Program-made: the position numbers and the translations under genes
Shown here: positions 41,687 to 56,619 of the stretch, piece by piece
How the letters are laid out: each line of letters begins with the position of its first letter
Position numbering within the stretch: position 1 is the first letter of the stretch
The notes under the pieces: model-generated
Told to the model about the DNA's origin: nothing
Seen by the model: only the letters and a program-made list of their open reading frames with translations
The model's database searches: none
Assembly: GCA_043806015.1 (NCBI GenBank)
Contig: JAZDHH010000007.1
Coordinates: 115,698-179,697, forward strand
DNA from: Nanobdellota archaeon
GTDB lineage: Archaea; Nanobdellota; Nanobdellia; Woesearchaeales; JAHIVG01
Length of the DNA stretch: 64,000 nucleotides
Direction of reading: 5' to 3'

Positions 41687-41820
41687 ACCTATTGTTCCGG
41701 GAGAGCAATGCCCTATTTAAATGTATTGCTTGCCTATGAAAAGACAAGAATAACGCATAACCCCTAAATAAGCCATAGCTTATGGAAACCTGCTGGAAAG
41801 TTTTAATAAGGTAGCCCAAT

Positions 41821-41915
41821 CACCCCGCCTTTTGACTATGGATGACATGCAAAAGGCACCCAAAAACTTCCGGTCAAAACCTATTTTCCTGCGAGACTTC
41901 ATGCGTTGCTTATGT
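41821..41915 (+). repeat. Copy A of an inverted repeat of about 95 bp (its partner is at 54841-54935)
   Basis: A core ttttgactatggatgacatgcaaaaggcacccaaaaacttccggtcaaaacctatttt is about 90% identical to the reverse complement of the 54841-54935 region. Confidence 0.8.
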
Positions 41916-41995
41916 CGCACGATATTTGAGAAAGATTTATATATATTTCGCACGTATATTAGTTAAAGTTTGCATTATTTTTACAAAAGAAGTCG

Positions 41996-44533
41996 ATGGA
42001 TGTGATAAAAAAGGCGAGGTTTATAATGAACATAAAACTTTGGATAGCATTAATTGCGTTGACATTGGTTGTTTTTGTTGTTTTAGGGGCGGTAAAAGTG
42101 CGGGACCTCGTGGGTGTGAGTCTCTCTTCACCGACAGGCGCCCAGAACATTTACATCGACGATTCGTTCACCATGACGTGCAGCCCTACGTATTCAGGCA
42201 ACGGCGGGCTTCCGGCCATAATCTACACGGCGCAGTGGTGCGACAATTCTGGCTGCTCAGCTAACGTGTACACCATCCAGGTCGGGACACCGACCTCCGA
42301 CCCGATATCATTAGTGACCGGCGCGGTCAATCCGAAGCAAATACTGGATTCCACGCCCTGGAGCTACTCTGTGTATGGGAGGAATAGCGGGACAGCGTAC
42401 ATAAGATGCAAGGCACAGGGCGGCAGCACCTGCAGCGGCGGATGCTACAGCACGATTAGGCAGGTCACGGTCCAAGAGGCCGGCGACCTACCCCCCACTA
42501 CAACATTAACTTCTCCAGCAGACCAGAGCCGGGTGTTGAATAGTTCTGTGACCTTCCAATGCGGCGCCAGTGACGACAACGGCCTGCAGAGCATGAGCCT
42601 GTATGGCGGCTGGGGCAGCGGATGGCACCTCGAGGAGACAAAGGCATTGAGCGGCTCATCGGACTCAGCCCAGTTCACCGTTTCGGGATTGGCAGACGGC
42701 ACCTACACATGGAACTGCGAGGCCAAGGACACGGCAAACCAGACGGATTTTGCGAACAGCAACTGGACGGTCAACATCGGCATGTTGAACAAGGATGACA
42801 TAATGATCAGCAGCGACTTCGAGATGGGCAACCTCATCAATGTCCAGCATGTTGAGGACCAGCAAGTCCCCTATAGGTATTATACTGCCCAGATCAACTA
42901 TTCAACGCAGTGGTTCTCCGACAAGCACTGGTGGTTCTCATTCTCCCTCGACAATGCCACTCAAAAGAGGGTGCACTTGGAGATCACGAATTGCAATAAC
43001 GCTGATGACACCCGCTTCGCGCACCTCATACCGGTGATCAGCTACACGGGCTTGCCAGGCGACTGGGTCAGGCTCCAGGGCAGCGAGTACAGCTATGATA
43101 GCGACAATAATAAGTACACGATAGATTTCACACCGACCGCCTCACCGGTTTACGTCGCGCCCATCCCCCATTACACCAACGCGATGTTGGCAAGCTATCT
43201 TTCCTCGAAGGCAAGCAGCCCTTATATGGAGACTTCCACGATTTCGGTGACACCTGAGGGAAGGAACGTCACCCTGGTCACCATCACCGACTCGAGCGTC
43301 AGCGACGAGGGCAAGTTCAAGGTCTTCCTCTTGGGAGGGGACCTGAATTCCGGAGAGCAGCAGAGCTCGTTCTATGCCCGGGGTTCCATTGAGTTTTTGC
43401 TTGATGAGTCCGACGAGACAGCGGCGGTCATTAGGAAGAACTACATCTTCCGCGTGGTGCCGGTGCAGAACCCGGACAGCACATATCATGGCATCTCCAG
43501 GTACACGCCTGTGAGGGACGGCATGCAGCACGATCTCAACAGGAACTGGGAGTCGGCCGAGCCGTACAAGCAGCCGGAAGTATGGGGTGGGATAAGATCA
43601 GCCATCGCTGACTGGCCTGCCGACGTCTTCATATCATACCATGGGGCGGTATTGGCTGACACGCAGTACTTCCTCTATCCCGGCGAATTGAGCTCTCAGG
43701 AGACGGCCCTGATGGACAGCATAGCCCAATACTGGAACGAGACCAGTGCCAGACTTTCCGGCTCGACCGTTGGCCTGAACTATGTCGAGATGGCCAACGC
43801 GGGCATCCTCTCACTGCTAATAGAGGTTTCGCCCAACCGGATCGTGCCGGGCGGTAACATCATAGACGAGCTGTATTGGATGGACAGCGGCAAGGATTTC
43901 GTCCTCGGCATATACAACTATCTCGGCGTTAACGACTCTGACCCGCCGTTGGTCGACGTTGTCGAGCCTTTGAACGGCAGCATTGTGAACATGACGGTGG
44001 CCATCAAGGCGGACGCCTCAGACGGGGGCAGCGGCATTCAAGGCGTTGAGTACAGGATCGATTCAGACAGCTATGTGCCGGTGGCTTATGTCGACCCGTA
44101 TTATGAAGCGGCATGGGACACAACCGCCGAGAGCAATGGCTTGCACACGATCACTGTGAGAGCGACCGACAACGAGAACAACATCAACACGGACTCGGTG
44201 CAGGTGAACGTGCAGAACTCGGTCCCCGATCTGAACGTCACCGTGGTGACGGACAAGTCCCAATACACGAGCGGAGAATGGGTGTCTTCCATCACGACGG
44301 TGAGAGACGGCCAGGGCAACCCGGTGTTCGGCGCAGACCTGACGGTTGTGATATACCGTTCGGATCTAACACAAGCCAAGGCATGCATCGGGACGACGCT
44401 GGGAGACGGCACCTACGAATGCCGCTACAGGATCGGCAGGAGCGATCCCCTAGGCACGTGGACAGTCGAGTCGGACGCAACCGAGACAGGCTATGGCCCT
44501 GGCCACGGCGAGACTACCTTCCAGGTAGTCTGA
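41996..44533 (+). CDS. Secreted multidomain protein with Ig-like (Big-type) domains flanking an M14 carboxypeptidase-like domain
   Basis: A signal/TM N-terminus, then ...VVPVQNPDS..., DLNRNW and ...ISYHGAV... (M14 landmarks), then C-terminal Ig-like domains. An alternative start is at 42026. Confidence 0.6.
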   Translation: MDVIKKARFIMNIKLWIALIALTLVVFVVLGAVKVRDLVGVSLSSPTGAQNIYIDDSFTMTCSPTYSGNGGLPAIIYTAQWCDNSGCSANVYTIQVGTPTSDPISLVTGAVNPKQILDSTPWSYSVYGRNSGTAYIRCKAQGGSTCSGGCYSTIRQVTVQEAGDLPPTTTLTSPADQSRVLNSSVTFQCGASDDNGLQSMSLYGGWGSGWHLEETKALSGSSDSAQFTVSGLADGTYTWNCEAKDTANQTDFANSNWTVNIGMLNKDDIMISSDFEMGNLINVQHVEDQQVPYRYYTAQINYSTQWFSDKHWWFSFSLDNATQKRVHLEITNCNNADDTRFAHLIPVISYTGLPGDWVRLQGSEYSYDSDNNKYTIDFTPTASPVYVAPIPHYTNAMLASYLSSKASSPYMETSTISVTPEGRNVTLVTITDSSVSDEGKFKVFLLGGDLNSGEQQSSFYARGSIEFLLDESDETAAVIRKNYIFRVVPVQNPDSTYHGISRYTPVRDGMQHDLNRNWESAEPYKQPEVWGGIRSAIADWPADVFISYHGAVLADTQYFLYPGELSSQETALMDSIAQYWNETSARLSGSTVGLNYVEMANAGILSLLIEVSPNRIVPGGNIIDELYWMDSGKDFVLGIYNYLGVNDSDPPLVDVVEPLNGSIVNMTVAIKADASDGGSGIQGVEYRIDSDSYVPVAYVDPYYEAAWDTTAESNGLHTITVRATDNENNINTDSVQVNVQNSVPDLNVTVVTDKSQYTSGEWVSSITTVRDGQGNPVFGADLTVVIYRSDLTQAKACIGTTLGDGTYECRYRIGRSDPLGTWTVESDATETGYGPGHGETTFQVV

Positions 44534-44566
44534 TTTTTTCTTTTTTATTCCATTTTTTATTCTCTC
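44534..44566 (+). terminator. T-rich archaeal-type terminator
   Basis: tgattttttcttttttattccattttttatt immediately after the stop codon. Confidence 0.45.
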
Positions 44567-45185
44567 AGCGACTTAAGGGGATCATTCCCATAATGGATCA
44601 ATGCTTATTCCTAATCCTGGAAGCTTCAACGCCGAGGGAAAAGCCCTGCGGCCCCCCTATCGCCTTTGCAGCTGCATTTACCGTCAGCGAGCCGATGCAA
44701 TCTTCCCGGCCAAAAAGCAGGCATGGAGACCGGCCTTACAGCAGGGTGTATGCGAAGGCGAGAGATGGCGATGCGGCCCATCGCCCCTAAGGTTCACAGG
44801 AGGGTAAGCTTGCAGATCATGCGCGAAGAACATTCCACTGAGAGGTTAGAGCCAGAATTCCCGCAAAGCAATGGGCGTGAAAAGTGGTGATCGCGCCATA
44901 AAAAAATACCAAGAACTTGGGTAAAGGGATGGCATGCATAATCAGGCTCTATTGAAGGTCTCGGGTCCTATCAACTAGCCCGTGTTCTGGATTAAGGGCC
45001 TATTGCGTGAGACTCTATCCCTCACAAGATGCCGACTTCCTTCGTAGAAGCATTGAAAAGGGCAGATTATGCCCGAACAACATCGGCGCAACAGGCCGGC
45101 AGCGCCTTTACCCCTCCATAACTTGACCGCACACCCATAATCCGAATCCGCCTGATTACCCATGATCTGCTCTCCCGCAGCCATG

Positions 45186-45250
45186 AAGGACCCAAAAAAA
45201 AAGAGGGAAGAGGAAAGGCACGCGCATCCCACCACCCGGCAGCGATGCCT
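45186..45250 (-). terminator. Hairpin plus T9 terminator after the minus-strand secreted-protein operon
   Basis: On the minus strand, GGAAGGCA...TGCCTTTCC is followed by tcttccctcttttttttt. Confidence 0.4.
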
Positions 45251-45255
45251 TCCCC

Positions 45256-47226
45256 TCAGGTACAACAGCATTTCACAGCTTCATCATATCCTACAGGGAA
45301 CTCTTCATTACAGGTGGTTATGGCAACCGGGCCACTAGGAGATTCTGCACAGTTGTCGTAAAAATAATAAATTCCGGCAGTCAGCACGCTTCCATAATCA
45401 AAATCGTAACATCCTTCCACGCAAGTCAACCCAAAGCCTGAACAGATTTCATCACAGTCCCATTCAGCGCCAACATCAACACAATCTGTCAACCTGCCCA
45501 TTCTTGGCGTGCTCTCGATAAAAGAGTCCGCCTGCTCAACAATGTCATCATAATACAGGCTGTAATTCTCCCAGAAGAAAGACCAATTATAAAGCGGGCT
45601 CATAAAGGTGAAAGCATCGCCGGCAGTCAGATAATTGAAAGCCCATGCCTGACTTGAAGGGGAATAAGCGACCCTATCGAACCGGCCATTTGACATGACA
45701 CCATCAGCCATGACTGTGTCGACGACCGTGTCATTATAGATGAACAGGTCATAACCCGTGCTCAAAATGCCCTCAACAATAGCCACCCTCGCCTCAGCCT
45801 CATCCGTCACGCCATACGTATACCACACCTTAAGCAAAACCTTGCCCTTGGAAGTAACGCCATAAGAAGCCTCCCAAATCTGGCCTGCCTCATACAAGGA
45901 ATCATCCCTCATCGCGATAAAATAGCTCAGATTCTCGCGGACACTCCGGGTAGCATTCAAAGCAGCGGAATCCGAAAGATCATCAGCCAACACAACCCAA
46001 GCATCACAAGGATAATTATACCCGCAAGCATCCTCCCAAATCACACTCGCACCTGTGTTGTGACCATCATCCCAATCACCAGCACTGGTCCCCGGACCGG
46101 CATTAAGCCCGTTGCCATCCTCAACTACCTCATTGCAACCTGAAAAGAATCTGTCCCTCCACTCAGAGGGCTGCGAATCCGCAACAGTGACAACATCCAA
46201 AAAAATCGACACGTTAGTCACATTAGCATCCTCAGGCAGCGAAGACAGGTTAAAAGTGAAAAAACCGCGCTTCTCAACGCCACTGCCACTCACATTTCTG
46301 CCCACGAGAGCATTAGTGTTATAATAAGCCTCATAATAATAAGAAAAACCCGTACTGACCTTCTTGATATAGCCTGACCGCTGCCCAGTATAATCAACCG
46401 TCACCTCACCAGCTAAAGCAGCGTCAATCCACCACATGCGAACAACCTCAGTGCCACTCCAGCCGCTGGGAGCAACGCCATCATTCATCGCGGCCATCAC
46501 CAACACGTCACCATCACCCTCATACCGCAGCCTCAGCACGTCCTCGCCGAACACGAAATGGCCTCGCTTAGAAACAGAGTCCCTTATGAATATCTGCGTC
46601 ACGCCATCAACCTCGAACTCCTCTGTGCTGTCAAGAAAGAAAGTGTCGCAAGACTCCACTCCACCATCCAAAAAGCAGTAGAAAACCTCGTCAACAACCG
46701 TGTCATTCTCAATCTGGACATCATCAAACTCCCAAACGTACCATAATGCATTATGGAACGAAAAAGCCCTGTCAGAAGAAACAAAAAAGCTGTTTTCCAT
46801 GTACCGATCAAACCTTTCCTGGCCGCGAAGCCAGCCAAAACACGGCCCGAAATCACAGTTTACGACACTCTGGTTCCAGAAGGTCAGGTTATCGCTCTGG
46901 ACACTGAGATTATAATCATCCAGCACACTCTCGCTAAAATAGGTGAAATGGCCACCCGCATTGTAATACGCAAGGCCAAACCGGTGAGTCAGCCACTGGG
47001 CGCGCCCCTTCGCATCATCCAAGTCAAAACCGTTGAAAAACTGCGAATAGCCGCTCGCAGCATCCTGCCAGATGTTGGCGCGGTCAGCGCCGTCAGGATT
47101 CCCATTCCACGTGTGGAGGTAATCGCCATCATCAACAAACTCAAAGCCCACAGGCGAAGTCGCAACAACAACAGGCAGCAACAACACCAGCAACAAACCC
47201 GTAATAGCGTGTCTCATCATCATCAC
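45256..47226 (-). CDS. Secreted protein with a Cys-rich C-terminal domain
   Basis: Signal peptide MMMMRHAITGLLLVLLLP, a 656-aa protein ending ...CNEEFPVGYDEAVKCCCT. Confidence 0.5.
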   Translation of the reverse strand: MMMMRHAITGLLLVLLLPVVVATSPVGFEFVDDGDYLHTWNGNPDGADRANIWQDAASGYSQFFNGFDLDDAKGRAQWLTHRFGLAYYNAGGHFTYFSESVLDDYNLSVQSDNLTFWNQSVVNCDFGPCFGWLRGQERFDRYMENSFFVSSDRAFSFHNALWYVWEFDDVQIENDTVVDEVFYCFLDGGVESCDTFFLDSTEEFEVDGVTQIFIRDSVSKRGHFVFGEDVLRLRYEGDGDVLVMAAMNDGVAPSGWSGTEVVRMWWIDAALAGEVTVDYTGQRSGYIKKVSTGFSYYYEAYYNTNALVGRNVSGSGVEKRGFFTFNLSSLPEDANVTNVSIFLDVVTVADSQPSEWRDRFFSGCNEVVEDGNGLNAGPGTSAGDWDDGHNTGASVIWEDACGYNYPCDAWVVLADDLSDSAALNATRSVRENLSYFIAMRDDSLYEAGQIWEASYGVTSKGKVLLKVWYTYGVTDEAEARVAIVEGILSTGYDLFIYNDTVVDTVMADGVMSNGRFDRVAYSPSSQAWAFNYLTAGDAFTFMSPLYNWSFFWENYSLYYDDIVEQADSFIESTPRMGRLTDCVDVGAEWDCDEICSGFGLTCVEGCYDFDYGSVLTAGIYYFYDNCAESPSGPVAITTCNEEFPVGYDEAVKCCCT

Positions 47227-47232
47227 CCCCTC

Positions 47233-50200
47233 CTAAGAAGACACTGAGACCGAAATGGTCTCAGCATCCTCATAATCATCATTCCAAGCTCGGGCAGTAA
47301 CATTATAGTATCCGTCAACAGAATAATTCGTGACCACGTACACGAGCCTTGTGCTGTTGGCAGGCAGGTCAAAATCAGTTATGCCGGTGTCCAAGGTGAC
47401 GCGCAAAAAAGGATGCTGGGTGTCATAATAAGACTCCTTGGAACGCGTCGAGACATAATCACCGGCGTTATCGGCATTCGACTCCGTAACGACATAAATC
47501 GAGAGATTGTTGGTGCCAAGCTCAACCTCAGCCTTCAGCATGTCAACGACCGAAAAGTTCAACGCCGACGGCGCGTCGCCGTCATCATACCTCAACCAAG
47601 AACCATAACCGGACAAAGAATATCCTACGGGATATAGCGGCCTGTTGTCCCACGTCACCGACGACTCATTCCATTCCGAACCGCTGATATTATACTCGGG
47701 GAAAGGATAAACCCTGTAAGGCGTCAGATTAACCCACTCACCCGCCTCCAAATTGTCCTCATAGGCATACAAGAAAAGCTCAGCAGCCACGATATCATCT
47801 CCATCATCAACAAAATCATAAAGGCTGGAAATGTCAAACTTGTACATGCCCCTTCGATCATTACCGCTATACGCCCCGAAATGCGCATAAGGCTCGCTGC
47901 CAAAATTGCCGCTCGAATCCGCCGACTTCACCATCGCGTCATCAGACGGCAAAAAAGTCAAGTACTTCGAGACAAGCTTCTCATCAGTATCCAGGCTCCA
48001 CTTCACGCCATCAACACTCTCATTGCCATCATTAACAATCCTGAACGAAAAAACGACCCGTTCGTTCCCCCTATTTTCCACTTCCCACAAATCGCGGACA
48101 TCAGGAAGATTGGCATAAAAATAACCCGACATGTTCACCAAAGTGCCATTGGAATGATGGACCCAGAAAGTGAAATTATGCCTGCCTGAATCTGTAGGGA
48201 CGAACCCATTATAATAGATATCAGTATTAGAAGGATTGGATTCCAAATTCAGCAAGGTGCTATAGTTCCTCCTGGAAGAATCAGGAGGCGAACTCACCTC
48301 GACGACAACCTCATCAACTCTCGCCGGACAAGGCCAAGAAGGCGGCGAGACATTGACAGAGAGATTCACTATTCCCCCCTCAAGATCGCCGTGATGAGAC
48401 GCATTGACACTATTGATCACCGCAGAACGGCTCTTATTCAGGCAGACATAGGAATAATAAACCTCGCGGTCAGCGTGCGTCCAGATATAATCCAGCGTTG
48501 TATTGGGATACTCGATCATCGCAGGATTGCTGTCATCCGCGGCATGATTTGTCAACCTCGAATGATCCCAATAAGTATTAACACCATCATTAGGATTTGT
48601 CGAATTTGAATGCACAATCTCATTGTTCCCATATGCCTCATCCTGGCCATCCGCATAATACATCAGATGGATATTGCTAGCCCGATCATAAGAAGCCTGA
48701 ACACGCCAAGCATCATAATCCCAATCTTCCTTGTATAAGTAAATCGCGCCACCTGGGCGCCAAGTTTCGCCGTAATCAGACGAATTGGTAAACCAGATAT
48801 AGTATCCATGGTTGGGGTTCATTTTTTTGTGCCATGCAACAACAAGGTGGTCGGGAGAATTTGGATCGATCGCCAAAGATGGCCGATAAGCGTCAGTAGC
48901 GGTAGTAACATCCTCCGAAATCGCTTCCTCATCCGACCACACATTCCCCTCATCTTCAGATTTGATGAACATTATCCGGTGATGGCCTCCAGATTGCAAA
49001 TAATCATCCACATCTTCATAGGCTGCATATAACAAAAACGCATCCCTGTCAGCAGCGATTGTGGGCGCATAATCCGAAAAGACATCATCAGTCAAGTTTT
49101 CCCACTCGTGATACCAATGAGTACCATGAGACTGGGACCCCCTGAATAGGATCTCAGCGCTATCAGTCTCCAAAGGCGGGTAAGGCCACCGGGCGATGAC
49201 ACTCATCATAACACTAGATACTGACAATGAAGGCCACCAGAGATTAGAGCTGTCGTTAGTCCTATTCCAATCGCTATAACCGTCCTCCCAATCACTGTGA
49301 TACGTACCATTCAGGGTGCAGGCCACCAGGAGGTCAACGCCATTTGTGCCTAAAGCCGGAAAAAGACAAACCTGCGTTTCAGGAGCAATGTCAGGATCCT
49401 CAATCTTCTGCACAGTCCAGCTGCCGCCATTATCAAGCGAATAGGCATGGAAACCCTCAGCACCAATGTCGTCAAATCCCCCCTTGGAACAGTTGGAAAA
49501 AACCGCGTGCACATTCCCATTACCATCCCGGACAATGCTCCGCTTGGCGTTATAATTGGTCATGTTATCACAATAAGTATAACTGGTATAAAGCTCCCTC
49601 ACCTTCGACTTCAGATAGATGTCCAGAAAAGGCCTCTGATCCCTATAATCAGTTTCCTTCGAGCGCGTCTTCACAAGATCAGTGGAACTCATACTCCCCG
49701 CGGCCGTGAAGGCCTTCACAAGAACAGACAGGTTGTCATCACCATCACCGACCTCATCTTTCACCATGTCAGTAACATTAAAACTCATCCAAAAAGGCGT
49801 TTGCCCATCAGCAGTGTCCCCGCCAGCTATAACCCAGCTATCCTCAGCAACACCATTGTATTCGTGATCAGAATCATCAGGCCTATTATTCCAGGTCACC
49901 GACGAATCATCCCACTCCAAATCGCTGACATTATAATCCGGATAAGAATACACGTGATGCGCATCCAAACGGATAGCCTCATCATCCGCCAAAGTGTCAT
50001 CATAAGCCCACAAATTGAGCTCGGCATACACGACATCGTCCTCATCAGCGCCGAAAATGCCATCCACCTGCGCCAGGTCAAACTTATACATGCCAAAATA
50101 CCTTGACGAGTCAGCTGTAACAGAGCAATAATTAATATAAGCCTCCCCACCATAATTTACGTAAGGAGCATCCTCATAAAGCAGACTATCATCCATGACC

Positions 50201-50925
50201 TCCCCGGCAAAAGAACCGTATTCGGCAAGCTGCAGGCGATGCCTCGCGACCGTGGGATCATCAACAGTGACAAGCAGATAAGGTTTGCCGGACATGCCAG
50301 TTTCCGATGAACGCGTTTTCACATAATTATCATAATCCGGGCTCCCGGAATCAGTCACGGCCTTGACAAGGAAACTGACATTACGGTCATCTTGAAGCAT
50401 TTCCTCAACAACCGCGCCAGTAACAGTGAAATTCATCCACTGCCTGCCATCACCATTACTATAAACCCAGCTGTCCAAAACACTGCTGTGCTCAGACTCA
50501 AAATCAGGGCGGTTAAGCCAATTGACACGAATCCCATTCCACTCAACACCATCAACAGAATAATCAGGATAAGAATACACGTGATACGCATTCAACTCGA
50601 CAGCCTCGCCGATGTCCAAAGTCTCATCATAAGCATAGATAAAAAGAACAGCCTCCGTCACATCAGCCGGATCAGCATCCAGCCCTGTCAAATCAAACTT
50701 GTACATGCCGTAACGCTGATGTTCCTCAGCAGGACAATAATGGATAAAGGCTGACTCGTAAAAACTGGTGCCAGGCTCATCCTCCTTCAGCATGGTATCA
50801 TCCAAAACATCGTCACGCAGCGGAATAGAATACACCGCACCACAAACAGAGCCAACACCGGACAGCAGGAAAACAACCAGCACAAAAAACATCAGAAACC
50901 TATAGAGAACCCTAGACGTCGCCAT
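47233..50925 (-). CDS. Secreted 1230-aa mosaic protein with three DNRLRE/CBM96-like modules and BNR (Asp-box) repeats
   Basis: Signal peptide. Three repeats of ...GMYKFD(L/I)...(V/I)(N/T)W.NRP.... BNR motifs SLDNGGSW, SEDEGNVW and SSDYGETW. Confidence 0.6.
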   Translation of the reverse strand: MATSRVLYRFLMFFVLVVFLLSGVGSVCGAVYSIPLRDDVLDDTMLKEDEPGTSFYESAFIHYCPAEEHQRYGMYKFDLTGLDADPADVTEAVLFIYAYDETLDIGEAVELNAYHVYSYPDYSVDGVEWNGIRVNWLNRPDFESEHSSVLDSWVYSNGDGRQWMNFTVTGAVVEEMLQDDRNVSFLVKAVTDSGSPDYDNYVKTRSSETGMSGKPYLLVTVDDPTVARHRLQLAEYGSFAGEVMDDSLLYEDAPYVNYGGEAYINYCSVTADSSRYFGMYKFDLAQVDGIFGADEDDVVYAELNLWAYDDTLADDEAIRLDAHHVYSYPDYNVSDLEWDDSSVTWNNRPDDSDHEYNGVAEDSWVIAGGDTADGQTPFWMSFNVTDMVKDEVGDGDDNLSVLVKAFTAAGSMSSTDLVKTRSKETDYRDQRPFLDIYLKSKVRELYTSYTYCDNMTNYNAKRSIVRDGNGNVHAVFSNCSKGGFDDIGAEGFHAYSLDNGGSWTVQKIEDPDIAPETQVCLFPALGTNGVDLLVACTLNGTYHSDWEDGYSDWNRTNDSSNLWWPSLSVSSVMMSVIARWPYPPLETDSAEILFRGSQSHGTHWYHEWENLTDDVFSDYAPTIAADRDAFLLYAAYEDVDDYLQSGGHHRIMFIKSEDEGNVWSDEEAISEDVTTATDAYRPSLAIDPNSPDHLVVAWHKKMNPNHGYYIWFTNSSDYGETWRPGGAIYLYKEDWDYDAWRVQASYDRASNIHLMYYADGQDEAYGNNEIVHSNSTNPNDGVNTYWDHSRLTNHAADDSNPAMIEYPNTTLDYIWTHADREVYYSYVCLNKSRSAVINSVNASHHGDLEGGIVNLSVNVSPPSWPCPARVDEVVVEVSSPPDSSRRNYSTLLNLESNPSNTDIYYNGFVPTDSGRHNFTFWVHHSNGTLVNMSGYFYANLPDVRDLWEVENRGNERVVFSFRIVNDGNESVDGVKWSLDTDEKLVSKYLTFLPSDDAMVKSADSSGNFGSEPYAHFGAYSGNDRRGMYKFDISSLYDFVDDGDDIVAAELFLYAYEDNLEAGEWVNLTPYRVYPFPEYNISGSEWNESSVTWDNRPLYPVGYSLSGYGSWLRYDDGDAPSALNFSVVDMLKAEVELGTNNLSIYVVTESNADNAGDYVSTRSKESYYDTQHPFLRVTLDTGITDFDLPANSTRLVYVVTNYSVDGYYNVTARAWNDDYEDAETISVSVSS

Positions 50926-51031
50926 GATACCATCCTCCCCCCCTTTTTTTATAAAAAACCAAGAGAGGTTTCATCATTCCGCAAGTAATATAAAAACCTT
51001 TCGAAAAAAGAACAAGGGAAAAAAAAAGGAA

Positions 51032-51589
51032 TCACCTATACAAAGCCTTGATCGCGCCCCAACTGTCGGACTGCAGGGGAGTGGACCCGGTCACAGACTG
51101 CAACTCAACCCTCAGGCCGCCGTGCAGCAACGCGTCAATGATCCGGACGAGGTCTTCCGGGATCACTTCATCACTATTCACGCCGTTGAGGTAAACGCTT
51201 TGCACAGGAACAGGGCTGTTGCCGAATGCCCCGGTCTCCAGGATTTTCTGTTCCGATGGCTGGTTCACGCTTACATGGCTAAAAGGATAGGCCATCAGCC
51301 CGGGGTTGAGGTCCTGCCTCAGCTGGACCCCCAAGCATTCCACGAGGCCGCCTGCGCCTTGGTCCCTGAACAGGTACGTGAAGCCGCTGTTGTGCTCGAC
51401 GGGCTCCAGCCCATATGCACCGAGCGCTTCATAGAGGCTCGCAAGCAGATCATGCTGCTCCATCATGGCCCCTGCGACTGAAGTTGTGGGCTTCACCCCA
51501 GAACCTTCAACTGCTGCAGCACCTACAGGCGCCGCTGCCAAAAGTCCGGTCAAAGCCAAATGTTTCATCATAGGTTTCATTCTGACCAA
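51032..51589 (-). CDS. Small secreted protein
   Basis: Signal peptide, 185 aa. Its start overlaps the stop of the upstream paralog. Confidence 0.4.
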   Translation of the reverse strand: MVRMKPMMKHLALTGLLAAAPVGAAAVEGSGVKPTTSVAGAMMEQHDLLASLYEALGAYGLEPVEHNSGFTYLFRDQGAGGLVECLGVQLRQDLNPGLMAYPFSHVSVNQPSEQKILETGAFGNSPVPVQSVYLNGVNSDEVIPEDLVRIIDALLHGGLRVELQSVTGSTPLQSDSWGAIKALYR

Positions 51590-52656
51590 CCTCCCTCTAC
51601 CATCGAAGTCAAGATCTTCCCGCCGCCACCGGACGGCGGAATGACTAGGCCTCCCACATGAACATGCAGATCCCTGATGTTGTTGCTCTCATCATACTCG
51701 TCGATGAGATCCTCATAGTCAACGAAGACCTCTGGAAAGTAATCGCCCGAGGCAGGATAGCTCCAGAGCTCGTACACCGTCATGAAATCGCCAGCAGCCA
51801 GGGAAATCGGCTGGTTATTGTACAGATAGGCGGGCTCACCCTGCGTGGCGACCTTGTAATAGATGTCCTCGAGGTCTTCATCGCCGAGGTTGCTGAGCCT
51901 GAACTGGAACAGGATGTCATCGCCGGCAACAGGGTTTTGGGGATAGACCGCGCTGAAATCGGTCACCGCAACATCGCTGCCAGAGCCCTGATAATGTATC
52001 CGGAGTAATGGGCGCTGGTCATCGTGGATGGACTCCTTCGAGCGGGTCTTCAAATAGTCGCCGGAGCTGTGGCCGCTGATCTGATCGGTGACTATGAAGA
52101 CAGACAGGTTGTGGTCGCCCTCCATGAACTCTGTCTTGACCATGTCGGTGACATCGAAAGGAAGCCAGACATCCGGAGAGTTATTCCCGCAGAACACAGT
52201 GGAATCCGAAGGGGCCGTGTCATATTCTGAAGAGGACGCCGGCCTGTTGCCCCACGTCACCGAATACTCGTCCCACTCGAGGCCGCCGATCTGATAGGCC
52301 GGATAGGAATAGATGTGATGGGAGGACATGGTGACGCACTCGTCATCCCTGTCCAAGGTCTCATAGTAGGCATACAGGTTAAGCTCGGCGCTGATGATGT
52401 CATCGGCATTGCCAATCGCGGTGTACAGTTGGGACAGGTCGAATTTGAAAAGCGCCTGCCTCTGCGAATAAAAAGCGGAGCAGAAATGGACAAAGGTCTC
52501 ATGCCCGTAATTGGCGTCGGGATACCTCGCCCATAGCTGCGCATCGTCCAGGTTCTCTGTGTCAGCGTCCTGCAGCACCAGCGTCCCGGCAACAGCGATG
52601 CCTGAACAGGACAGCAACGCCGCCACCATCACCACAAACACCGCGTAAGCATTCAT
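51577..52656 (-). CDS. Secreted DNRLRE-like plus CARDB-domain surface protein, paralog 1
   Basis: Signal peptide, a YKFDLSQLY...VTWGNRP...KTRSKESIHDDQRPLL module, a CARDB-like stretch (...SNLG...E.DESNN...) and a C-terminal GGGGKILTSMVEGGWSE tail. Confidence 0.6.
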   Translation of the reverse strand: MNAYAVFVVMVAALLSCSGIAVAGTLVLQDADTENLDDAQLWARYPDANYGHETFVHFCSAFYSQRQALFKFDLSQLYTAIGNADDIISAELNLYAYYETLDRDDECVTMSSHHIYSYPAYQIGGLEWDEYSVTWGNRPASSSEYDTAPSDSTVFCGNNSPDVWLPFDVTDMVKTEFMEGDHNLSVFIVTDQISGHSSGDYLKTRSKESIHDDQRPLLRIHYQGSGSDVAVTDFSAVYPQNPVAGDDILFQFRLSNLGDEDLEDIYYKVATQGEPAYLYNNQPISLAAGDFMTVYELWSYPASGDYFPEVFVDYEDLIDEYDESNNIRDLHVHVGGLVIPPSGGGGKILTSMVEGGWSE

Positions 52657-53720
52657 TCGGAACCACCTTCCATCATGGTAAACAATTTTCCGCCGTGATG
52701 GTGGAAAGGCAGGACGCTCCCGACCTGCACCATCAGATTCCGGTAGTTGTTCGACTCATTGAACTCGGCAATGGTGTCCCCGTAGTCCGCGACAACCTCC
52801 GGATAAAAGATCCCCGGGTTGGAATAGCGCCAATTCTCATAGACGATGATGAAATCGCCCGCATCCAAAGAGATCGGCTGGGAATTATAAAGATGGGGAG
52901 GCTCGCCGCGGGTGGCTACCCGGTAATACACGTTTTCAAGGTCTTCAGTGCCAAGGTTGCTGAGCCTGAACTCGAAAAGGATGTTATTGCCCACGACAGG
53001 ATTGCTGGGATACACCTTGCTGAAATCGGTCACCGCAACATCATTGCCGCCGGCCTCATAGGTGATGAGCAGAAAGGGCCGCACGTCGGAAAAATAGGAT
53101 TCCTTTGACCGAACCCTCAAAAGGTCGTCAGGGCTCGTGCCTTCGATTTCAGATGTCATCATGTAGATGGAGACGTTCATGTCACCCTCCGAGAATTCCT
53201 GCCTCACCATTCCGGTCACGTTGAACGGCAGCCACTCATTCAATGCCATGCCGTCGCAAAAGAGGCCTGTGTCTTCAGCAGCGGGATTGTACTCAGAAGG
53301 CAGGACTGGCCGGTTCCCCCATGTCACGGAAAGCTCGTCCCACTCGAGGCCCTCGACCTGGTATGAGGGGTAGGAGTAGGCGTGGTGGGCGGACATCTCG
53401 ACGCACTCATTCTCTTCGAAAGTCTCCTCGTATGCGTAGAGGTAAAGCTCGGCGCTGCCTATCTGGAAGGCATCGTCTATGAGGGGATAAAGCTGTGACA
53501 GGTCGAACTTGTACATGCCGAACCTCTGATAGTCCGGGGAAGAGCTGAAGAGGATATACGGCTCAGTGCCGTAGTTCTCATCAGGGGTCCACTCCCTGAG
53601 CATTGTGTCAGCAAAGGTCTCTGTGTCGGCGTCCTGCAGGGCCAGGGTGTAGGTGAAAGCCAACGCTGGAGCGGTGCACACCATGAGGACAATCATGAAT
53701 AAGACAGACTTTTCCGTCAT
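52653..53720 (-). CDS. Secreted DNRLRE-like plus CARDB-domain surface protein, paralog 2
   Basis: Same architecture as paralog 1, with a HHGGKLFTMMEGGSE tail. Confidence 0.6.
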   Translation of the reverse strand: MTEKSVLFMIVLMVCTAPALAFTYTLALQDADTETFADTMLREWTPDENYGTEPYILFSSSPDYQRFGMYKFDLSQLYPLIDDAFQIGSAELYLYAYEETFEENECVEMSAHHAYSYPSYQVEGLEWDELSVTWGNRPVLPSEYNPAAEDTGLFCDGMALNEWLPFNVTGMVRQEFSEGDMNVSIYMMTSEIEGTSPDDLLRVRSKESYFSDVRPFLLITYEAGGNDVAVTDFSKVYPSNPVVGNNILFEFRLSNLGTEDLENVYYRVATRGEPPHLYNSQPISLDAGDFIIVYENWRYSNPGIFYPEVVADYGDTIAEFNESNNYRNLMVQVGSVLPFHHHGGKLFTMMEGGSE

Positions 53721-54766
53721 ATAGACTCACCCCCATCCATAACAGAATGATACTTGCCGCCGCCATGCAGGGGTGGCGGAGGAACAGCCGTACCGATGAG
53801 GACTGGCAAGCGTCTCATGTTGTTGGTCACATTGAGGTCCTCATAGTCGACGATGACCTCAGGCATGAAAGATCCAGCCGAGCCGTAGCTCCAGAGCTCA
53901 TACACATCCACGAAATCGCCCACCGCCAGAGAGATAGGCTCTGTGTTGGAGAAAAAAGGGGGCTCACCCCTCGTGTTCACCTGATAATAGATGCCCTCAA
54001 GGCCAGTTGTGCCAAGGTTGCTGAGCCTGAACCGGAACAGGATGTCATCGCCGACAACAGGGTTTTGGGGATAGACCGCGCTGAAATCGGTCACGGCCAC
54101 ATCGCCGCCGCCGCCCTCATAGGTTATCAATAGATAAGGACGCTGGTCCTCATGGATGGACTCCTTCGAGCGGGTCTTCACATAGTCGCCGGAGCTGTGG
54201 CCAATGAACTCGTCAGTGGCTATGTAGATGGATACATTCTTGTCTCCTTGCAGGAACTCTTGCTTGACCATGCCGGTCACATTGAAAGGCAGCCACACCT
54301 CAGAAGGCATGCGATTACAGAACAGGATCATGTCTTCAGGAGCAGGATTGATGGCGGATGATACCGGCTTGGTGTCCCAAGTCACAAGCATCTCCTCCCA
54401 CTCGCTGCCGTTGACCTGGTAGAAGGGATAAGAATAGACGTGATGGGCGAACATGTTGACGCACTCGTCATCGTCCAAGGTCTCATTGTAGGCATAGAGC
54501 AAGAGCTCCGCGCTGAGGATATCATCGGCATCATCAACAAGGCCGTAAAGGTACGCCAGGCCGAACTTGTAAATCCCCTGTCTCTGCGAAGAGGGGGCAG
54601 AGCAGTAATTCACGAACGGCTCGCTCCCATAATTCTGACTGTGATACTGCTCTCTTACCTGCACATCTCCGAGGTCCACTCTGTCGACATACTGCAGCCC
54701 ATAAGCAGGCGCAAATCCCGCGCAGGCAAATGCACAAATCAATAGCATAATAGCCCGTATATTCAT
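53717..54766 (-). CDS. Secreted DNRLRE-like plus CARDB-domain surface protein, paralog 3
   Basis: Starts at MNIRAIMLLICAF; the longer track ORF that begins at 54916 runs through the repeat element. Carries a HGGGKYHSVMDGGESI tail. Confidence 0.6.
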   Translation of the reverse strand: MNIRAIMLLICAFACAGFAPAYGLQYVDRVDLGDVQVREQYHSQNYGSEPFVNYCSAPSSQRQGIYKFGLAYLYGLVDDADDILSAELLLYAYNETLDDDECVNMFAHHVYSYPFYQVNGSEWEEMLVTWDTKPVSSAINPAPEDMILFCNRMPSEVWLPFNVTGMVKQEFLQGDKNVSIYIATDEFIGHSSGDYVKTRSKESIHEDQRPYLLITYEGGGGDVAVTDFSAVYPQNPVVGDDILFRFRLSNLGTTGLEGIYYQVNTRGEPPFFSNTEPISLAVGDFVDVYELWSYGSAGSFMPEVIVDYEDLNVTNNMRRLPVLIGTAVPPPPLHGGGKYHSVMDGGESI

Positions 54767-54840
54767 TGTATCAACCCGATTATACCTATTAAGTGATGAA
54801 AAAGTAAGACTCCTTAATAAATGTTTTGTTGAAGAAGGTA

Positions 54841-54935
54841 GCGAGATGGGTAATGCGTGAGGTTTCGCATAAAAATAGGTTCTGACCGGAAGTTTTTGGT
54901 GCCTTTTGCAGGTCATCCATAGTCAAAAAGCGGTG
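54841..54935 (-). repeat. Copy B of the inverted repeat of about 95 bp
   Basis: Reverse complement of the 41821-41915 element. It lies in the upstream leader of paralog 3. Confidence 0.8.
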
Positions 54936-55377
54936 TGATGAGATTACAAGGGGCATAGCGTTCCAGCTGGTTTCCATAAGCTTGAGTTCACAAGTTGCAA
55001 TGGCAGGTATTCCACGTTTATACAGAGTACGTACTCAGCGAATAAAACGCTTGTTCGCCTCGCATAACCTCTTGTGCGGGTAGTCCTTTGAGATGCTGTA
55101 GGTTCTCCTTCATCAACAAGGTTGGTCGTCCGCTCCGCTTGTGCATCGGGAGCGGCAAGCCGCTCTTTTGACGCTGAATCCAAAGAAAACAGCCGGCTGA
55201 ATGCAATCGACGAGATTCGCGATCCCTTGCTTCTTTTTGCCAGGTGCCCATTTGTTCACAGCTACGAACTCACTTTTACGCAACCGCCTCGGCCCTGACG
55301 CTTCATCTTCCTGATCGAGAAGAGGGATATTAAAAAGCTTCAAAACATTTATAATCCCTAGGCCTATAAAACTCGCT

Positions 55378-56619
55378 ATGAAAAGGGGCGCGAACCAGGT
55401 CGACTGGGCCATCAGCATGTTCATCTTCCTCCTGTACCTCTTCTGGTTCTTCCTGCTCATCCAGCCGAGGATCAACCCAACGAAGGACGTCAACACCGTC
55501 TTGTCATTCGTCAAGGAGGGCTTCCTCGATGACACCCAATGGGAAGTGCAGAAAGCGCCGATCATCATCCGAGCCAATGATTCCGAGGTCAACGTTCCCA
55601 TCAGGGTCGCTGCACCGAACTGGACCCTCGCTCAGATGTCGCTGAACCCGACGGTCTTCCTCGCCTTGGACGAGGCCGAGCTGGTCTTCATCGGCAACAT
55701 CAGCCCAAGCAAGAGCTATGCCCTGGTGCATTCGGCAGCAGAATATGGCAACCCGTATCCCTTGCCGGCGGTCATCGCCGACGACCTGGACGTCACCGTG
55801 CCTGGCCAGGGCGTCAAGGCCTCTATGAACAGCTCCCTGCCAGGGGTCATCTCCTACAACGGCACCCGGCTGTACAGCCTCGACCTGCTCCAGAACAACC
55901 AACCCGTACCCCGGACGGAGAGCGAGATGAACATCACGCCGATCTTCGCCAAGTACAAGCTCATCGAGGACGGCTGGAACATCAGCACCTATTTCTACAT
56001 GCAGCGCCGCGAGGTTTGGTTCACGCTGCGCTACGGCACCGCCCGGCCGAGGCTCACCCTCACCGCCCAGCTCTATCCGTATCCGGACTATTTCGCCAAC
56101 AACCGCGACCAGGGCAGTCTCAACTATACCGAGGAGACCTGCGCCAACCTGTCCACAGACAGCATCGATCTCTACGGCGGATCTGGGTTCCAGCTCCTTT
56201 TCGACCGGGAAGTGAACATCTCCCTCTGCGCTGAGAACTCCTCTCGCCTGTTCGTCAACGCCACGTTCTTCAACGTGAGCGAGTTCCGCTTCATCATGCA
56301 TGAAGGCGATTATCAGAATCGCGAGACCAGGCTGCACAAGCATGTCGCCCTGCTCGGCTCCTTCGAGACCCTGACCGGCGTCCGGTGGGAGAATGTTTCC
56401 GCCGTGAACGCGACAAGCCATACGGCCCTCAAGCAGCGCTGGTCCATCCCACTCGAGCGGGACTTCTCTTTCATCATCAAGAATGCCTCGCAGACCTTTG
56501 TGGAGCACAACATGACCTCTCCCCCGAAGACGCAGGTCTACGCGGTCACCGAGCCGCTCCTGGTCCTCGGGCAAGATGCAAGCACCAACAGCACATCAAT
56601 CACCTATCGCGCATGGTAA
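55378..56619 (+). CDS. Archaeal type IV pilin-like surface protein, heavily N-glycosylation-sequon-rich
   Basis: N-terminal MKRGANQVDWAISMFIFLLYLF resembles a class III (prepilin) signal peptide. The 413-aa protein has about 18 N-x-S/T sequons. Confidence 0.5.
   Translation: MKRGANQVDWAISMFIFLLYLFWFFLLIQPRINPTKDVNTVLSFVKEGFLDDTQWEVQKAPIIIRANDSEVNVPIRVAAPNWTLAQMSLNPTVFLALDEAELVFIGNISPSKSYALVHSAAEYGNPYPLPAVIADDLDVTVPGQGVKASMNSSLPGVISYNGTRLYSLDLLQNNQPVPRTESEMNITPIFAKYKLIEDGWNISTYFYMQRREVWFTLRYGTARPRLTLTAQLYPYPDYFANNRDQGSLNYTEETCANLSTDSIDLYGGSGFQLLFDREVNISLCAENSSRLFVNATFFNVSEFRFIMHEGDYQNRETRLHKHVALLGSFETLTGVRWENVSAVNATSHTALKQRWSIPLERDFSFIIKNASQTFVEHNMTSPPKTQVYAVTEPLLVLGQDASTNSTSITYRAW

Follow-up and report, generated by a model that had tools for sequence, protein, structure and literature searches.

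A foreign-looking island in a DPANN archaeon encodes exported proteins carrying a lineage-specific CBM96/DNRLRE module and possibly binding glycans

Binding of alginate and of chondroitin sulfate is known for solved CBM96 modules (PMC9971899; PDB 8WAB title), among them TM6-N4, part of the alginate lyase Dp0100 (PDB 7VBO), and a chondroitinase module that binds chondroitin sulfate (PDB 8WAB). TGF-beta prodomains have been reported as fold neighbours of the founding CBM96 (PMC9971899). The first description of the DNRLRE domain came from archaeal surface proteins (PMC2447325), and DNRLRE and disaggregatase-related proteins of Methanosarcina are exported and repeat a DNRLRE unit of ~200 aa (Adindla et al. 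2004, PMC2447325). Among Nanoarchaeota, cell-surface proteins are the variable class, and the 'hypothetical external' surface proteins of Nanoarchaeota/DPANN are thought to mediate host contact (PMC6142677).

Here, we describe a locus within a window of 64,000 nucleotides, the whole stretch of DNA that was analysed, from the chromosome of a DPANN archaeon (a MAG with the NCBI label 'Nanoarchaeota archaeon'). The host is a small symbiotic-type archaeon. A 13.2-kb segment of atypical composition, 41777-54982, encodes seven exported-type, very acidic proteins in convergent units (Table 1). Six of the ORFs form a minus-strand array (45256-54766) that is as tightly packed and overlapping as a first-pass annotation had described.

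Table 1. Features of the island, in window coordinates
Feature	Position	Strand	Evidence or scores
Inverted repeat, left arm	41777..41925	+	repeat search and pairwise alignment
845-aa exported-type protein, convergent with the array	41996..44533	+	Pfam
656-aa protein, MFH1133430.1 (NCBI: 653 aa from ATG 47217)	45256..47226	-	ORF
1230-aa protein, MFH1133431.1 'DNRLRE domain-containing protein'	47233..50925	-	NF033679 151, PF24517 87.5 bits
Module 3, aa 995-1181	47383..47943	-	HMM i-Evalue 2e-54
Asp-box/BNR repeat region, aa ~455-830	48436..49563	-	SxDxGxxW motifs
Module 2, aa 242-438	49612..50202	-	paralog-derived HMM i-Evalue 4e-58
Module 1, aa 40-221	50263..50808	-	paralog-derived HMM i-Evalue 3e-43
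Probable terminator and internal promoter, 106-nt gap	50926..51031	-	motifs in sequence
182-aa exported-type ORFan	51032..51580	-	ATG 51580 (185 aa from TTG, 51032-51589)
Paralog 3, 359 aa	51577..52656	-	NF033679 74.1, PF24517 56.2, PF07705 36.6 bits
Paralog 2, 355 aa, MFH1133434.1	52653..53720	-	NF033679 58.3, PF24517 48.8, PF07705 37.7 bits
Paralog 1, 349 aa	53717..54766	-	NF033679 52.7, PF24517 45.3 bits
Inverted repeat, right arm	54835..54982	-	repeat search and pairwise alignment

Consecutive genes at the head of the array share 4-nt ATGA overlaps at 53717-53720 and 52653-52656, with a third at 51577-51580 if ATG 51580 is taken as the start of the 185-aa gene. This ATG, which overlaps the paralog 3 stop and has GGAGG upstream, is the better start. 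The 1230-aa and 656-aa genes are separated by 6 nt containing GGAGG, and the 185-aa and 1230-aa genes by a 106-nt gap that holds an oligo-T run, AAAGGTTTTTATATTA (BRE/TATA-like), another box rich in T/A, and GGAGG at a distance of 8 nt from the ATG that follows. Because this gap combines a T-run and a ribosome-binding site with a BRE/TATA-like element, the array, earlier regarded as one operon-like set of six genes, probably comprises two transcription units.

A module of ~200 aa occurs in exactly six copies, of which the 1230-aa protein holds three and the three tandem ~355-aa paralogs one apiece. The four motifs by which the first-pass annotation recognised it, thought to recur about six times, are each present six times in identical order and are absent from every other six-frame ORF of the window. 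A module HMM found six strong copies in four proteins (i-Evalue 1e-43 to 1e-122) and none beyond them in a scan of the window. The proposal that all six array proteins are built from the module holds by sequence for four of them, and fails for the 185-aa and 656-aa proteins. The suggested DNRLRE/CBM96 identity was borne out by profiles and by structure. The same four proteins exceed the curated cut-offs of both NF033679 (NCBIfam DNRLRE; 34 bits) and PF24517 (Pfam CBM96; 26 bits), each profile matching the 1230-aa protein in three stretches, and the AF2 model of module 3 (pLDDT 70-90) has as its best structural match the solved CBM96 8WAB (Foldseek E 3.5e-7, TM 0.71). Its next Foldseek neighbours are TGF-beta prodomains, a likeness to TM6-N4 seen in the one island module that was modelled. 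The modules share with CBM96/DNRLRE the hydrophobic core motifs xKFDLS, VTWxNRP and xRSKE...P.L, and by sequence they resemble the solved members only weakly (profile E 5e-4 and 1e-3; in the structural match, 20% of residues are identical). The NCBI annotation already calls the module-bearing proteins 'DNRLRE domain-containing'.

In a NJ tree the six modules form one clade against their nearest outside relatives (bootstrap 0.99), within which the modules of the three paralogs group together (0.965) and modules 1 and 2 of the 1230-aa protein are sisters (0.86). They constitute a lineage-specific branch of the CBM96/DNRLRE beta-sandwich, and differ from solved CBM96 members in being strongly acidic, in forming their own clade, in their DPANN host and in having almost no public relatives: among 5.8 billion proteins, species-representative genomes and metagenome contigs, only three module relatives were found, all remote (26-36% identity), and the cluster was not found conserved elsewhere. 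The paralogs, 55-58% identical pairwise and visible as DNA repeats with a period of 1061-1067 nt, share the architecture of paralog 3, in which a signal-like N-terminus is followed by DNRLRE/CBM96 (aa 25-224), CARDB (aa 226-340) and a conserved Gly-rich C-terminal tail. The NCBI version of paralog 1 (320 aa) lacks the signal-like N-terminus; that of the 349-aa version aligns with the N-termini of paralogs 2 and 3. A CARDB domain had been predicted in each paralog, and two pass the PF07705 gathering score of 22.7 bits; the third, paralog 1, falls under it at 12.1 bits and is a close homologue, 63-68% identical to the others in this region. Compared with archaeal and bacterial CARDB adhesin-like proteins, CARDB here lies C-terminal to a single CBM96 in proteins of ~355 aa that have a Gly-rich tail and no anchor. 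With dS of 0.85-1.6 and dN/dS of 0.22-0.37 between pairs, the paralogs are old (dS ~1) and under purifying selection, which contradicts the earlier view of a rapidly diversifying set of recent tandem duplicates. These data show that one ancestral module copy gave rise to the set by tandem gene triplication and intragenic duplication, with purifying selection since.

The 185-aa protein lacks the module and has no match in Pfam, NCBIfam, PHROGs or PDB; the GC3 of its gene is 0.67, against 0.59 for the plus-strand mirror ORF. NCBI accession numbering has room for one annotated gene at this locus. The 845-aa protein comprises an N-terminal hydrophobic segment, Big_7 Ig domains (61.8 bits), an M14 carboxypeptidase-like core (Peptidase_M14 34.4 bits, partial) with its N-domain (Pepdidase_M14_N 24.1 bits), and a C-terminal MG2 (41.1 bits).

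With about even confidence, we read the segment as an acquired, foreign-looking island of exported, multivalent glycan-binding surface proteins, lectins or adhesins. The 656-aa protein adds to the inventory of folds. Behind a signal-like N-terminus, AF2 models (pLDDT 70-90 over aa 24-470) place a galactose-mutarotase-like beta-supersandwich at aa ~24-280, with YidC-P1, alpha-mannosidase and GH36 N-domains as Foldseek neighbours (E 1e-6 to 1e-4), and a remote CBM96-like beta-sandwich at aa ~285-470, which matches 8WAB (E 6e-4, TM 0.61) and a phage CBM96 protein (E 3e-4). A ~100-aa domain follows (aa 470-573), which is C-terminal in >130 other proteins, and an 83-aa Cys-rich tail ends the protein. 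Lectin domains, e.g. Laminin_G_3, occur in proteins that share this ~100-aa domain. There are no Pfam or NCBIfam matches, and profile-profile comparison with the module gave no signal; the module is absent by sequence, and the modelled CBM96-like fold is only remote. An exhaustive search found 15 relatives with E<1e-30 (32-42% identity), located in Woesearchaeota/Nanoarchaeota MAGs; relatives of this protein have no DNRLRE neighbour. The carbohydrate-related folds of this protein count for the glycan-binding reading.

A role in secreted polysaccharide degradation, for acquiring nutrients or breaching a partner's envelope, is possible, and we hold it rather unlikely. Here the Asp-box region of the 1230-aa protein would be a sialidase-like glycosidase targeted by three CBM96 modules, and the 656-aa protein and the three small CBM96-CARDB proteins would be accessory binders. 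CBM96 was defined in lyases (PMC9971899), lyases of alginate, hyaluronate and pectate as well as PL8 enzymes of haloarchaea contain DNRLRE (PMC9971899, PMC13260240), and galactose-mutarotase-like supersandwiches are typically found as accessory domains in glycoside hydrolases and lyases. The 1230-aa protein runs from a signal-like N-terminus through modules 1-2, the Asp-box (BNR) region and Ig-like segments to module 3, which appears to be flanked by two putative Ig-like domain halves (aa ~940-985 and 1185-1230); joined, these match PKD at E 0.014 and nothing else. Its canonical SxDxGxxW motifs at aa 496, 656 and 715 and degenerate ones at 597 and 777, spaced ~59 aa, suggest that the region is probably a six-bladed beta-propeller. 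Similarity to Pfam BNR_2 (18.3 bits, cut-off 31.4) and to a sialidase, the best PDB sequence match (E 0.14), is weak but also fits this role. Against it, the sialidase match is confined to the Asp-boxes and not collinear, the region is modelled only at pLDDT ~30, and Asp-box propellers are often non-catalytic. No catalytic family exceeds any Pfam or NCBIfam threshold, a candidate catalytic domain is absent from five of the seven island proteins, and, unlike in solved CBM96 members, the modules here have no recognisable lyase or hydrolase domain attached. The Disaggr_repeat score of paralog 3 (PF06848, 30.2 bits), just under the cut-off of 33.9, speaks for the degradation role; the island, although archaeal, exported and built on repeated ~200-aa DNRLRE like the Methanosarcina proteins, has no disaggregatase catalytic region and different layouts (DNRLRE with CARDB, and three DNRLRE with the Asp-box region).

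An improbable alternative is that these are structural envelope proteins, S-layer-associated or matrix, whose DNRLRE and CARDB domains would serve as scaffold and have no specific ligand on another cell. The sequences are highly acidic (pI 4.0-4.4, with 4.4 for the 845-aa protein and 4.95 for the 185-aa ORFan, against 7-9 for the window's housekeeping proteins) and glycosylation-prone, and archaeal envelope proteins often contain CARDB and Ig-like domains. The first proteins in which DNRLRE was noted were S-layer and surface proteins of Methanosarcina (PMC2447325, PMC9971899). Each of the six array proteins begins with a hydrophobic segment and lacks any further TM-like one, which counts for the lectin/adhesin reading, as do the low pI and the sequon enrichment; on that reading the island proteins would leave the cell by Sec. 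No recognisable membrane or cell-wall anchor was found in the array proteins, so surface attachment is an assumption. The claim that all the proteins are rich in sequons is right for the 656-aa protein (13, against 4.3 in shuffles) and the 1230-aa protein (31, against 11.4), which alone show a ~3-fold enrichment and would be N-glycosylated, and wrong for the 185-aa protein (0) and the paralogs (2-5 each, near expectation). Three small paralogs with neither sequon enrichment nor an anchor argue against an envelope scaffold, and foreign codon usage and absence from relatives are unexpected for a core envelope component.

That foreign character, proposed earlier from low GC, is real. GC is 0.47-0.52 in the array genes against ~0.60, and GC3 is 0.51-0.74 within the island (0.51-0.72 in the six array genes, 0.51 in the 1230-aa gene, 0.74 in the 845-aa gene) against 0.80-0.90 outside; the paralogs (0.66-0.72) are intermediate between the host level and the ~0.5 of the two large genes of the island. 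In genome and metagenome scans, the closest relatives of the module and those of the 656-aa protein sit on contigs of 29-33% GC. An imperfect inverted repeat (77.5% over 148 nt, core 81-91%) bounds the segment, its three sub-blocks each occurring exactly twice in 64 kb with none expected. Strongly atypical codon composition, relatives on ~30% GC contigs and the bounding repeat together support acquisition, and the source was probably low-GC DPANN relatives, from which the island would have been taken up. The left arm stops ~70 nt 5' of the 845-aa gene start, before an A/T-rich TATA-like stretch, and the right arm ~70 nt 5' of the paralog 1 start; no ORF is common to both arms (1-nt indel) and no RNA-structure signal was detected in the repeat. 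Lying 5' of both inward-facing units, the arms may co-regulate them. That the genes are inert, decaying cargo of a defunct mobile segment, as atypical GC3, terminal repeats and unconserved synteny might suggest, is hardly credible given seven intact ORFs out of seven (one of 1230 codons), dN/dS well below 1, preserved start/stop overlaps and ribosome-binding sites, and an intermediate paralog GC3 that would fit long residence.

The glycan-binding reading must also accommodate the ligand surface. In alignment, the alginate-groove residues Lys10/22/25/27/31 of the founding CBM96 are replaced by D/A/H/gap/A, so that compared with TM6-N4 the lysine cluster is absent and only Arg36 and Tyr159 are kept, the latter in four of the six modules; net charge per module is -20 to -32 (pI ~4.1). 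Given the lost lysines and the acidic modules, 'carbohydrate-binding' comes from the family name and not from conserved ligand contacts, and the ligand is probably no polyanion held as the founding CBM96 holds alginate. Like the 'hypothetical external' proteins (PMC6142677), the island proteins are from DPANN, exported, lineage-specific and organised as a local paralog expansion. Amino-acid variation at the population level defines that class, whereas the island is seen in one genome and its paralogs are under purifying selection. The CBM96 island proteins are a tidy yet rather unremarkable example of a known domain family, which together would work extracellularly as a multivalent glycan-binding lectin/adhesin set of diverged specificities, with polysaccharide of a partner cell or of the surrounding matrix as their target.

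The six minus-strand open reading frames lie at 45256-54766, as the first-pass annotation had placed them, and the module repeated among them is assigned by sequence and by predicted fold to the CBM96/DNRLRE family. A hidden Markov model built from the three paralogs detects six strong copies, three within the 1230-aa protein (aa 40-221, 242-438, and 995-1181; modules 1 to 3) and one in each paralog. The same model finds no copy in the 656-aa and 185-aa proteins, nor anywhere else among the six-frame ORFs of the window, so that the earlier description of all six proteins as module-built holds for four of them only. The four motifs originally listed occur six times each in the window, in the same order, and are confined to the modules. 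Identity between modules is 34-57% and between full-length paralogs 55-58%, and the paralogs are visible as DNA repeats with a period of 1061-1067 nt. The DNRLRE model NF033679 scores 151.1, 74.1, 58.3, and 52.7 bits against the 1230-aa protein and paralogs 3, 2, and 1 (cut-off 34), and the CBM96 model PF24517 scores 87.5, 56.2, 48.8, and 45.3 bits against the same four proteins (cut-off 26), with three separate stretches matched within the 1230-aa protein. A profile of the six copies reaches solved family members weakly (7VBO, E 5.5e-4; 8WAB, E 1.2e-3). The AlphaFold model of aa 439-1230 of the 1230-aa protein is confident for module 3 only (pLDDT 70-90), the one copy of the six that was modelled, and its top PDB match is 8WAB (E 3.5e-7, TM 0.71, 20% identity). 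The next structural matches are the TGF-beta, BMP9, and activin prodomains, which are also given as fold neighbours of the founding CBM96, TM6-N4 (7VBO) (PMC9971899).

The CARDB model (PF07705; gathering score 22.7) is passed by the 359-aa and 355-aa paralogs (36.6 and 37.7 bits). The corresponding region of the 349-aa paralog scores 12.1 bits, yet is 63-68% identical to the CARDB domain of the other two, and by sequence we count all three paralogs as CARDB members. These scores, with those for NF033679 and PF24517 and the match of module 3 to 8WAB, bear out the DNRLRE/CBM96 and CARDB identities that the first-pass annotation had proposed. After CARDB, the C-termini of all three paralogs carry a conserved, non-hydrophobic, Gly-rich tail, PP..[HG]GGK....M.[ED]GG.S[EI], that has no likeness to any known sorting signal and might serve as a docking peptide. 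The NCBI version of paralog 1 (P0003; 320 aa, start MDLGDVQV) is without 29 N-terminal residues. As these residues line up with the signal-like N-terminal stretches of paralogs 2 and 3, the ATG at 54766 is the better predicted start.

Paralogs 1 to 3 and the 185-aa gene are joined by 4-nt overlaps, and the 1230-aa and 656-aa genes by a GGAGG that spans the stop codon. The 106-nt gap between these two groups contains an oligo-T run, a AAAGGTTTTTATATTA element, and a ribosome-binding site, motifs which suggest that the array is probably two transcription units rather than the single operon-like set of six first described. Pfam, NCBIfam, PHROGs, and PDB contain no relative of the 185-aa ORF, and neither four alternative starts of it nor its mirror ORF are present in the protein collection. 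Its likely start, ATG 51580, overlaps the stop codon of the upstream paralog and has a GGAGG ahead of it, its GC pattern by codon position is a better fit than the mirror ORF's, and the NCBI accession numbering has room for one gene at the locus; we accept it as a gene and assign it no role. All six array proteins possess an N-terminal hydrophobic segment and no other transmembrane-like segment, and no anchor signal was found in the island proteins. Sequons, at first thought abundant in every protein, are about 3-fold enriched over shuffles in the 656-aa and 1230-aa proteins only; the paralogs contain 2-5 and the 185-aa protein 0.

The 656-aa protein has no Pfam or NCBIfam match. An exhaustive search returned 15 relatives with E<1e-30 and 32-42% identity over aa 11-470, indicating by sequence that it is not an orphan, and a separate genome scan located three relatives in Woesearchaeota/Nanoarchaeota MAGs of 29-33% GC. 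AlphaFold, run on a 14-sequence alignment, models aa 24-470 at pLDDT 70-90. The first domain of the model resembles galactose-mutarotase-like supersandwiches (YidC P1, alpha-mannosidase, and GH36 N-domains; E 1e-6 to 1e-4). Foldseek matches the second (aa ~285-470) to 8WAB (E 6e-4, TM 0.61-0.63), and this domain also matches a phage CBM96 protein (E 3e-4). Since there is no profile-profile signal to the module, the modelled likeness to CBM96 is at the level of fold only, and is suggestive, not decisive; as a carrier of the module by sequence, the protein was rejected (module HMM E 0.54, hhalign probability 0.4%).

Amino acids 470-573 of the 656-aa protein constitute a domain of ~100 aa with the motifs ANExEGRxAIEEGI ... 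WAFNY ... VWEN, for which there is no Pfam model. It is found in more than 130 representative proteins, at the C-terminal end in 132 of 143 instances, and the lectin-type heads of its partners vary: Laminin_G_3 is present in 10 of 60, and DUF2341, Big_7, and one CBM96 also occur. In the 656-aa protein, an unusual Cys-rich tail of 83 aa comes after it. No DNRLRE gene lies beside the relatives of the 656-aa protein at the three loci L002-L004. At L004, in a Woesearchaeota MAG, the relative directly follows a gene for a 1148-aa FG-GAP propeller protein, which parallels the pairing of a large probable propeller protein with the 656-aa protein in the array. The relative at L002 carries Laminin_G_3 and adjoins a NiFe hydrogenase large subunit with 37% identity to that of the window.

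The founding CBM96, TM6-N4, contacts alginate through Lys10, 22, 25, 27, and 31, Arg36, and Tyr159 (PMC9971899), residues that mark alginate specificity and not family membership. In a profile alignment to 7VBO the five lysines of the CHARACTERISED CBM96 are not shared by the island modules, whose corresponding positions hold D, A, H, a gap, and A. Arg36 is retained as the conserved R preceding G[MIL]YKF, and Tyr159, the Y of DYVKTRSKE, is kept in four of the six modules. Net charge per module ranges from -20 to -32, with pI near 4.1, and the island proteins as a whole have pI 4.0-4.4, apart from the 185-aa ORFan at 4.95. The pI of housekeeping proteins encoded in this window is 7-9, which rules out a halophile origin of the acidity. 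The absence of the lysines together with the strong acidity makes it unlikely that the island modules would bind polyanions in the manner of the founding member. In contrast to characterised CBM96 proteins, the island branch is unusually acidic and lineage-specific, and has neither their basic groove nor a recognisable catalytic partner.

The array lies within a 13.2-kb island that also includes a convergent gene for an 845-aa exported-type protein. Twelve genes outside the island have a GC content at third codon positions (GC3) of 0.80-0.90. Within it, the two large genes have 0.51-0.53, the paralogs and the 185-aa gene reach 0.66-0.72, and the 845-aa gene 0.74. An imperfect inverted repeat brackets exactly the low-GC3 genes and coincides with the GC3 boundary.

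Positions of the island, its components, and features nearby or on other contigs
Feature	Position	Strand	Description
Island	41777-54982		13.2 kb
Inverted repeat, arm 1	41777-41925	+	148 nt, imperfect, 77.5% identity, core 81-91%
845-aa gene	41996-44533	+	exported-type; two Big_7, partial M14 carboxypeptidase core + N-domain, MG2; pI 4.4
Spacer between convergent 845-aa and 656-aa genes	44534-45255		720 nt, short implausible ORFs only
~100-aa domain of 656-aa protein	45508-45819	-	aa 470-573
Paralog 3	51577-52656	-	359 aa
Paralog 2	52653-53720	-	355 aa
Paralog 1	53717-54766	-	349 aa
Inverted repeat, arm 2	54835-54982	-	pairs with arm 1
413-aa gene	55378-56619	+	just outside island
121-aa ORF	56613-56978	+	overlaps 413-aa gene
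ABC ATPase, CARDB protein, permeases	29596-34080	+	genes in a row
Nearest outside module relative (P0005)	L001, 4363-5235		Cys-rich N-terminal region
Relative of 656-aa protein with Laminin_G_3	L002, 680-4969		adjoins hydrogenase gene
Propeller protein and relative of 656-aa protein	L004, 6264-11824		Woesearchaeota MAG

Both arms are upstream of a first gene that points into the island, and each stops ~70 nt short of that gene, immediately ahead of an A/T-rich, TATA-like stretch. The sub-blocks of the repeat occur in two copies only in the window. The repeat was rejected as a structured RNA (z-scores from -0.2 to -1.5; nothing matched in Rfam even at E<=1) and as a small ORF (frame broken by an indel), and was not found in viral contigs. 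The 20 nt just outside the two arms share no direct repeat, hence no target-site duplication; Pfam and NCBIfam detect no transposase, integrase, or Cas1 domain in any island ORF, and no tRNA or integrase lies at the island edges, where the neighbours are hydrogenase and surface-protein genes. The repeat may derive from duplication of an upstream regulatory region, or may represent what is left of the ends of a cargo segment. The spacer between the convergent genes has no Rfam match; it contains a hairpin and T-run after the 845-aa gene and a T-run after the 656-aa gene.

The surrounding DNA is ordinary chromosome, encoding CysRS, CTP synthase, SecD/F, RtcB, and a NiFe hydrogenase operon with CbiM; scans of the window for tRNA genes and Rfam families returned nothing. 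NCBI labels the MAG 'Nanoarchaeota archaeon' (locus tags V1735_02990 to V1735_03020) and annotates the 1230-aa protein and the three paralogs as 'DNRLRE domain-containing protein' and the 656-aa protein as 'hypothetical'. The 413-aa protein encoded just outside the island has 18 sequons (4.2 expected), and a fragment at least 90% identical to it is present in a JGI metagenome (P0157). The overlapping 121-aa ORF begins with MVKGFIRTLEAFIAIAFSFMALVYLF, a sequence that resembles an archaeal type IV pilin signal; neither protein has a Pfam match. Elsewhere in the window, an ABC ATPase, a 418-aa CARDB protein (just above threshold), and two MacB/FtsX-type permeases are encoded in a row by genes of host-typical GC3 (0.84-0.90) that may form a second surface-related unit.

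Searches for relatives of the module were nearly empty. Among 5.8 billion proteins, word-indexed searches for close homologues of the paralogs and of the six-module profile gave proteins of the same contig and, beyond these, P0005 (26% identity) only. The paralog alignment had no match in species-representative genomes, and the module alignment found two remote loci in metagenome contigs. P0005 resides on L001, a 36-kb contig of 31% GC with same-strand, mostly unannotated genes that could be viral or DPANN. In a neighbour-joining tree built with three outside relatives, all that were found, the six modules form one clade (bootstrap 0.99), as do the paralogs (0.965), and module 1 is sister to module 2 (0.86), which with these three outgroups argues for a local expansion. 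Because the module relatives located on contigs and the 656-aa relatives from the genome scan lie on DNA of ~30% GC, we take the 13.2-kb segment to have come from DPANN relatives of low GC, in keeping with the acquired, low-GC character proposed at first and with the GC3 step at the inverted repeat. Two further parts of that proposal, rapid diversification and a recent tandem duplication, do not agree with pairwise dN/dS of 0.22-0.37 and dS of 0.85-1.6 among the paralogs: the duplications are old and under purifying selection, although pairwise averages leave room for a few selected sites.

The island is of foreign composition. Its proteins are strongly acidic, carry export-type N-termini, and between them contain six CBM96 modules, CARDB, and other carbohydrate-type folds (in the 656-aa protein, a predicted fold); two are enriched in sequons, and the paralogs are under purifying selection. 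On the reading we favour, to which we give about even credence, the island proteins would be exported by Sec, the two large sequon-enriched proteins would be N-glycosylated, and the set would act outside the cell as multivalent glycan-binding lectins or adhesins. The main rival, a polysaccharide-degrading system, is rather unlikely. The sole candidate for its catalytic part is the Asp-box region of the 1230-aa protein, with canonical S-x-D-x-G-x-T-W motifs at aa 496, 656, and 715 and degenerate ones at aa 597 and 777. We predict that this region is probably a BNR-type propeller, with catalysis putative. The BNR models remain below cut-off there (BNR_2, 18.3 bits against 31.4; BNR, 13.5 against 27). 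The match to the sialidase 1EUR in PDB (E 0.14) is non-collinear and on the Asp-boxes only, and AF2 without homologues gives pLDDT ~30. Against a degrading system, no catalytic carbohydrate-active family scores above threshold in the island proteins in Pfam or NCBIfam. In the same protein, a CARDB domain split by module 3 is conjecture; the joined halves match PKD only (E 0.014). A structural role in the envelope is improbable, and inert cargo, for genes whose paralogs are under purifying selection, is scarcely credible.

Public sources already cover the domain family, its presence in surface proteins of archaea (PMC2447325), and the annotation of these proteins, and the island implies no new mechanism. 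Two things deserve recording beyond family membership: an island bounded by an inverted repeat and, in the 656-aa protein, an unnamed C-terminal domain. The island modules also extend CBM96 to a strongly acidic branch without the basic groove of characterised members, which suggests that the ligand range of the family is probably wider than uronic-acid polymers. DPANN archaea rely on contact with other cells, and to our knowledge very little has been learned of the surface proteins that make this contact. A compact, apparently acquired set made almost wholly of lectin-type folds (six CBM96 modules, a CBM96-like domain, a galactose-mutarotase-like supersandwich, CARDB, and the Asp-box region) is a reasonable candidate for such a function. 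A more specific proposal, and a quite improbable one, is that the island is a discrete, exchangeable DPANN 'adhesin cassette', marked by the inverted repeat and moved from a low-GC Woesearchaeota-like donor to the present high-GC genome, whose acidic modules would recognise an envelope heteropolysaccharide of the partner, such as a methanochondroitin-like polymer of methanogens. This proposal draws on the first sighting of DNRLRE in disaggregatase-related proteins (PMC2447325), on the binding of chondroitin sulfate by one solved CBM96 (PDB 8WAB), and on the co-occurrence of Woesearchaeota with methanogens (PMC5994134). If it were true, the island would be a host-range determinant.
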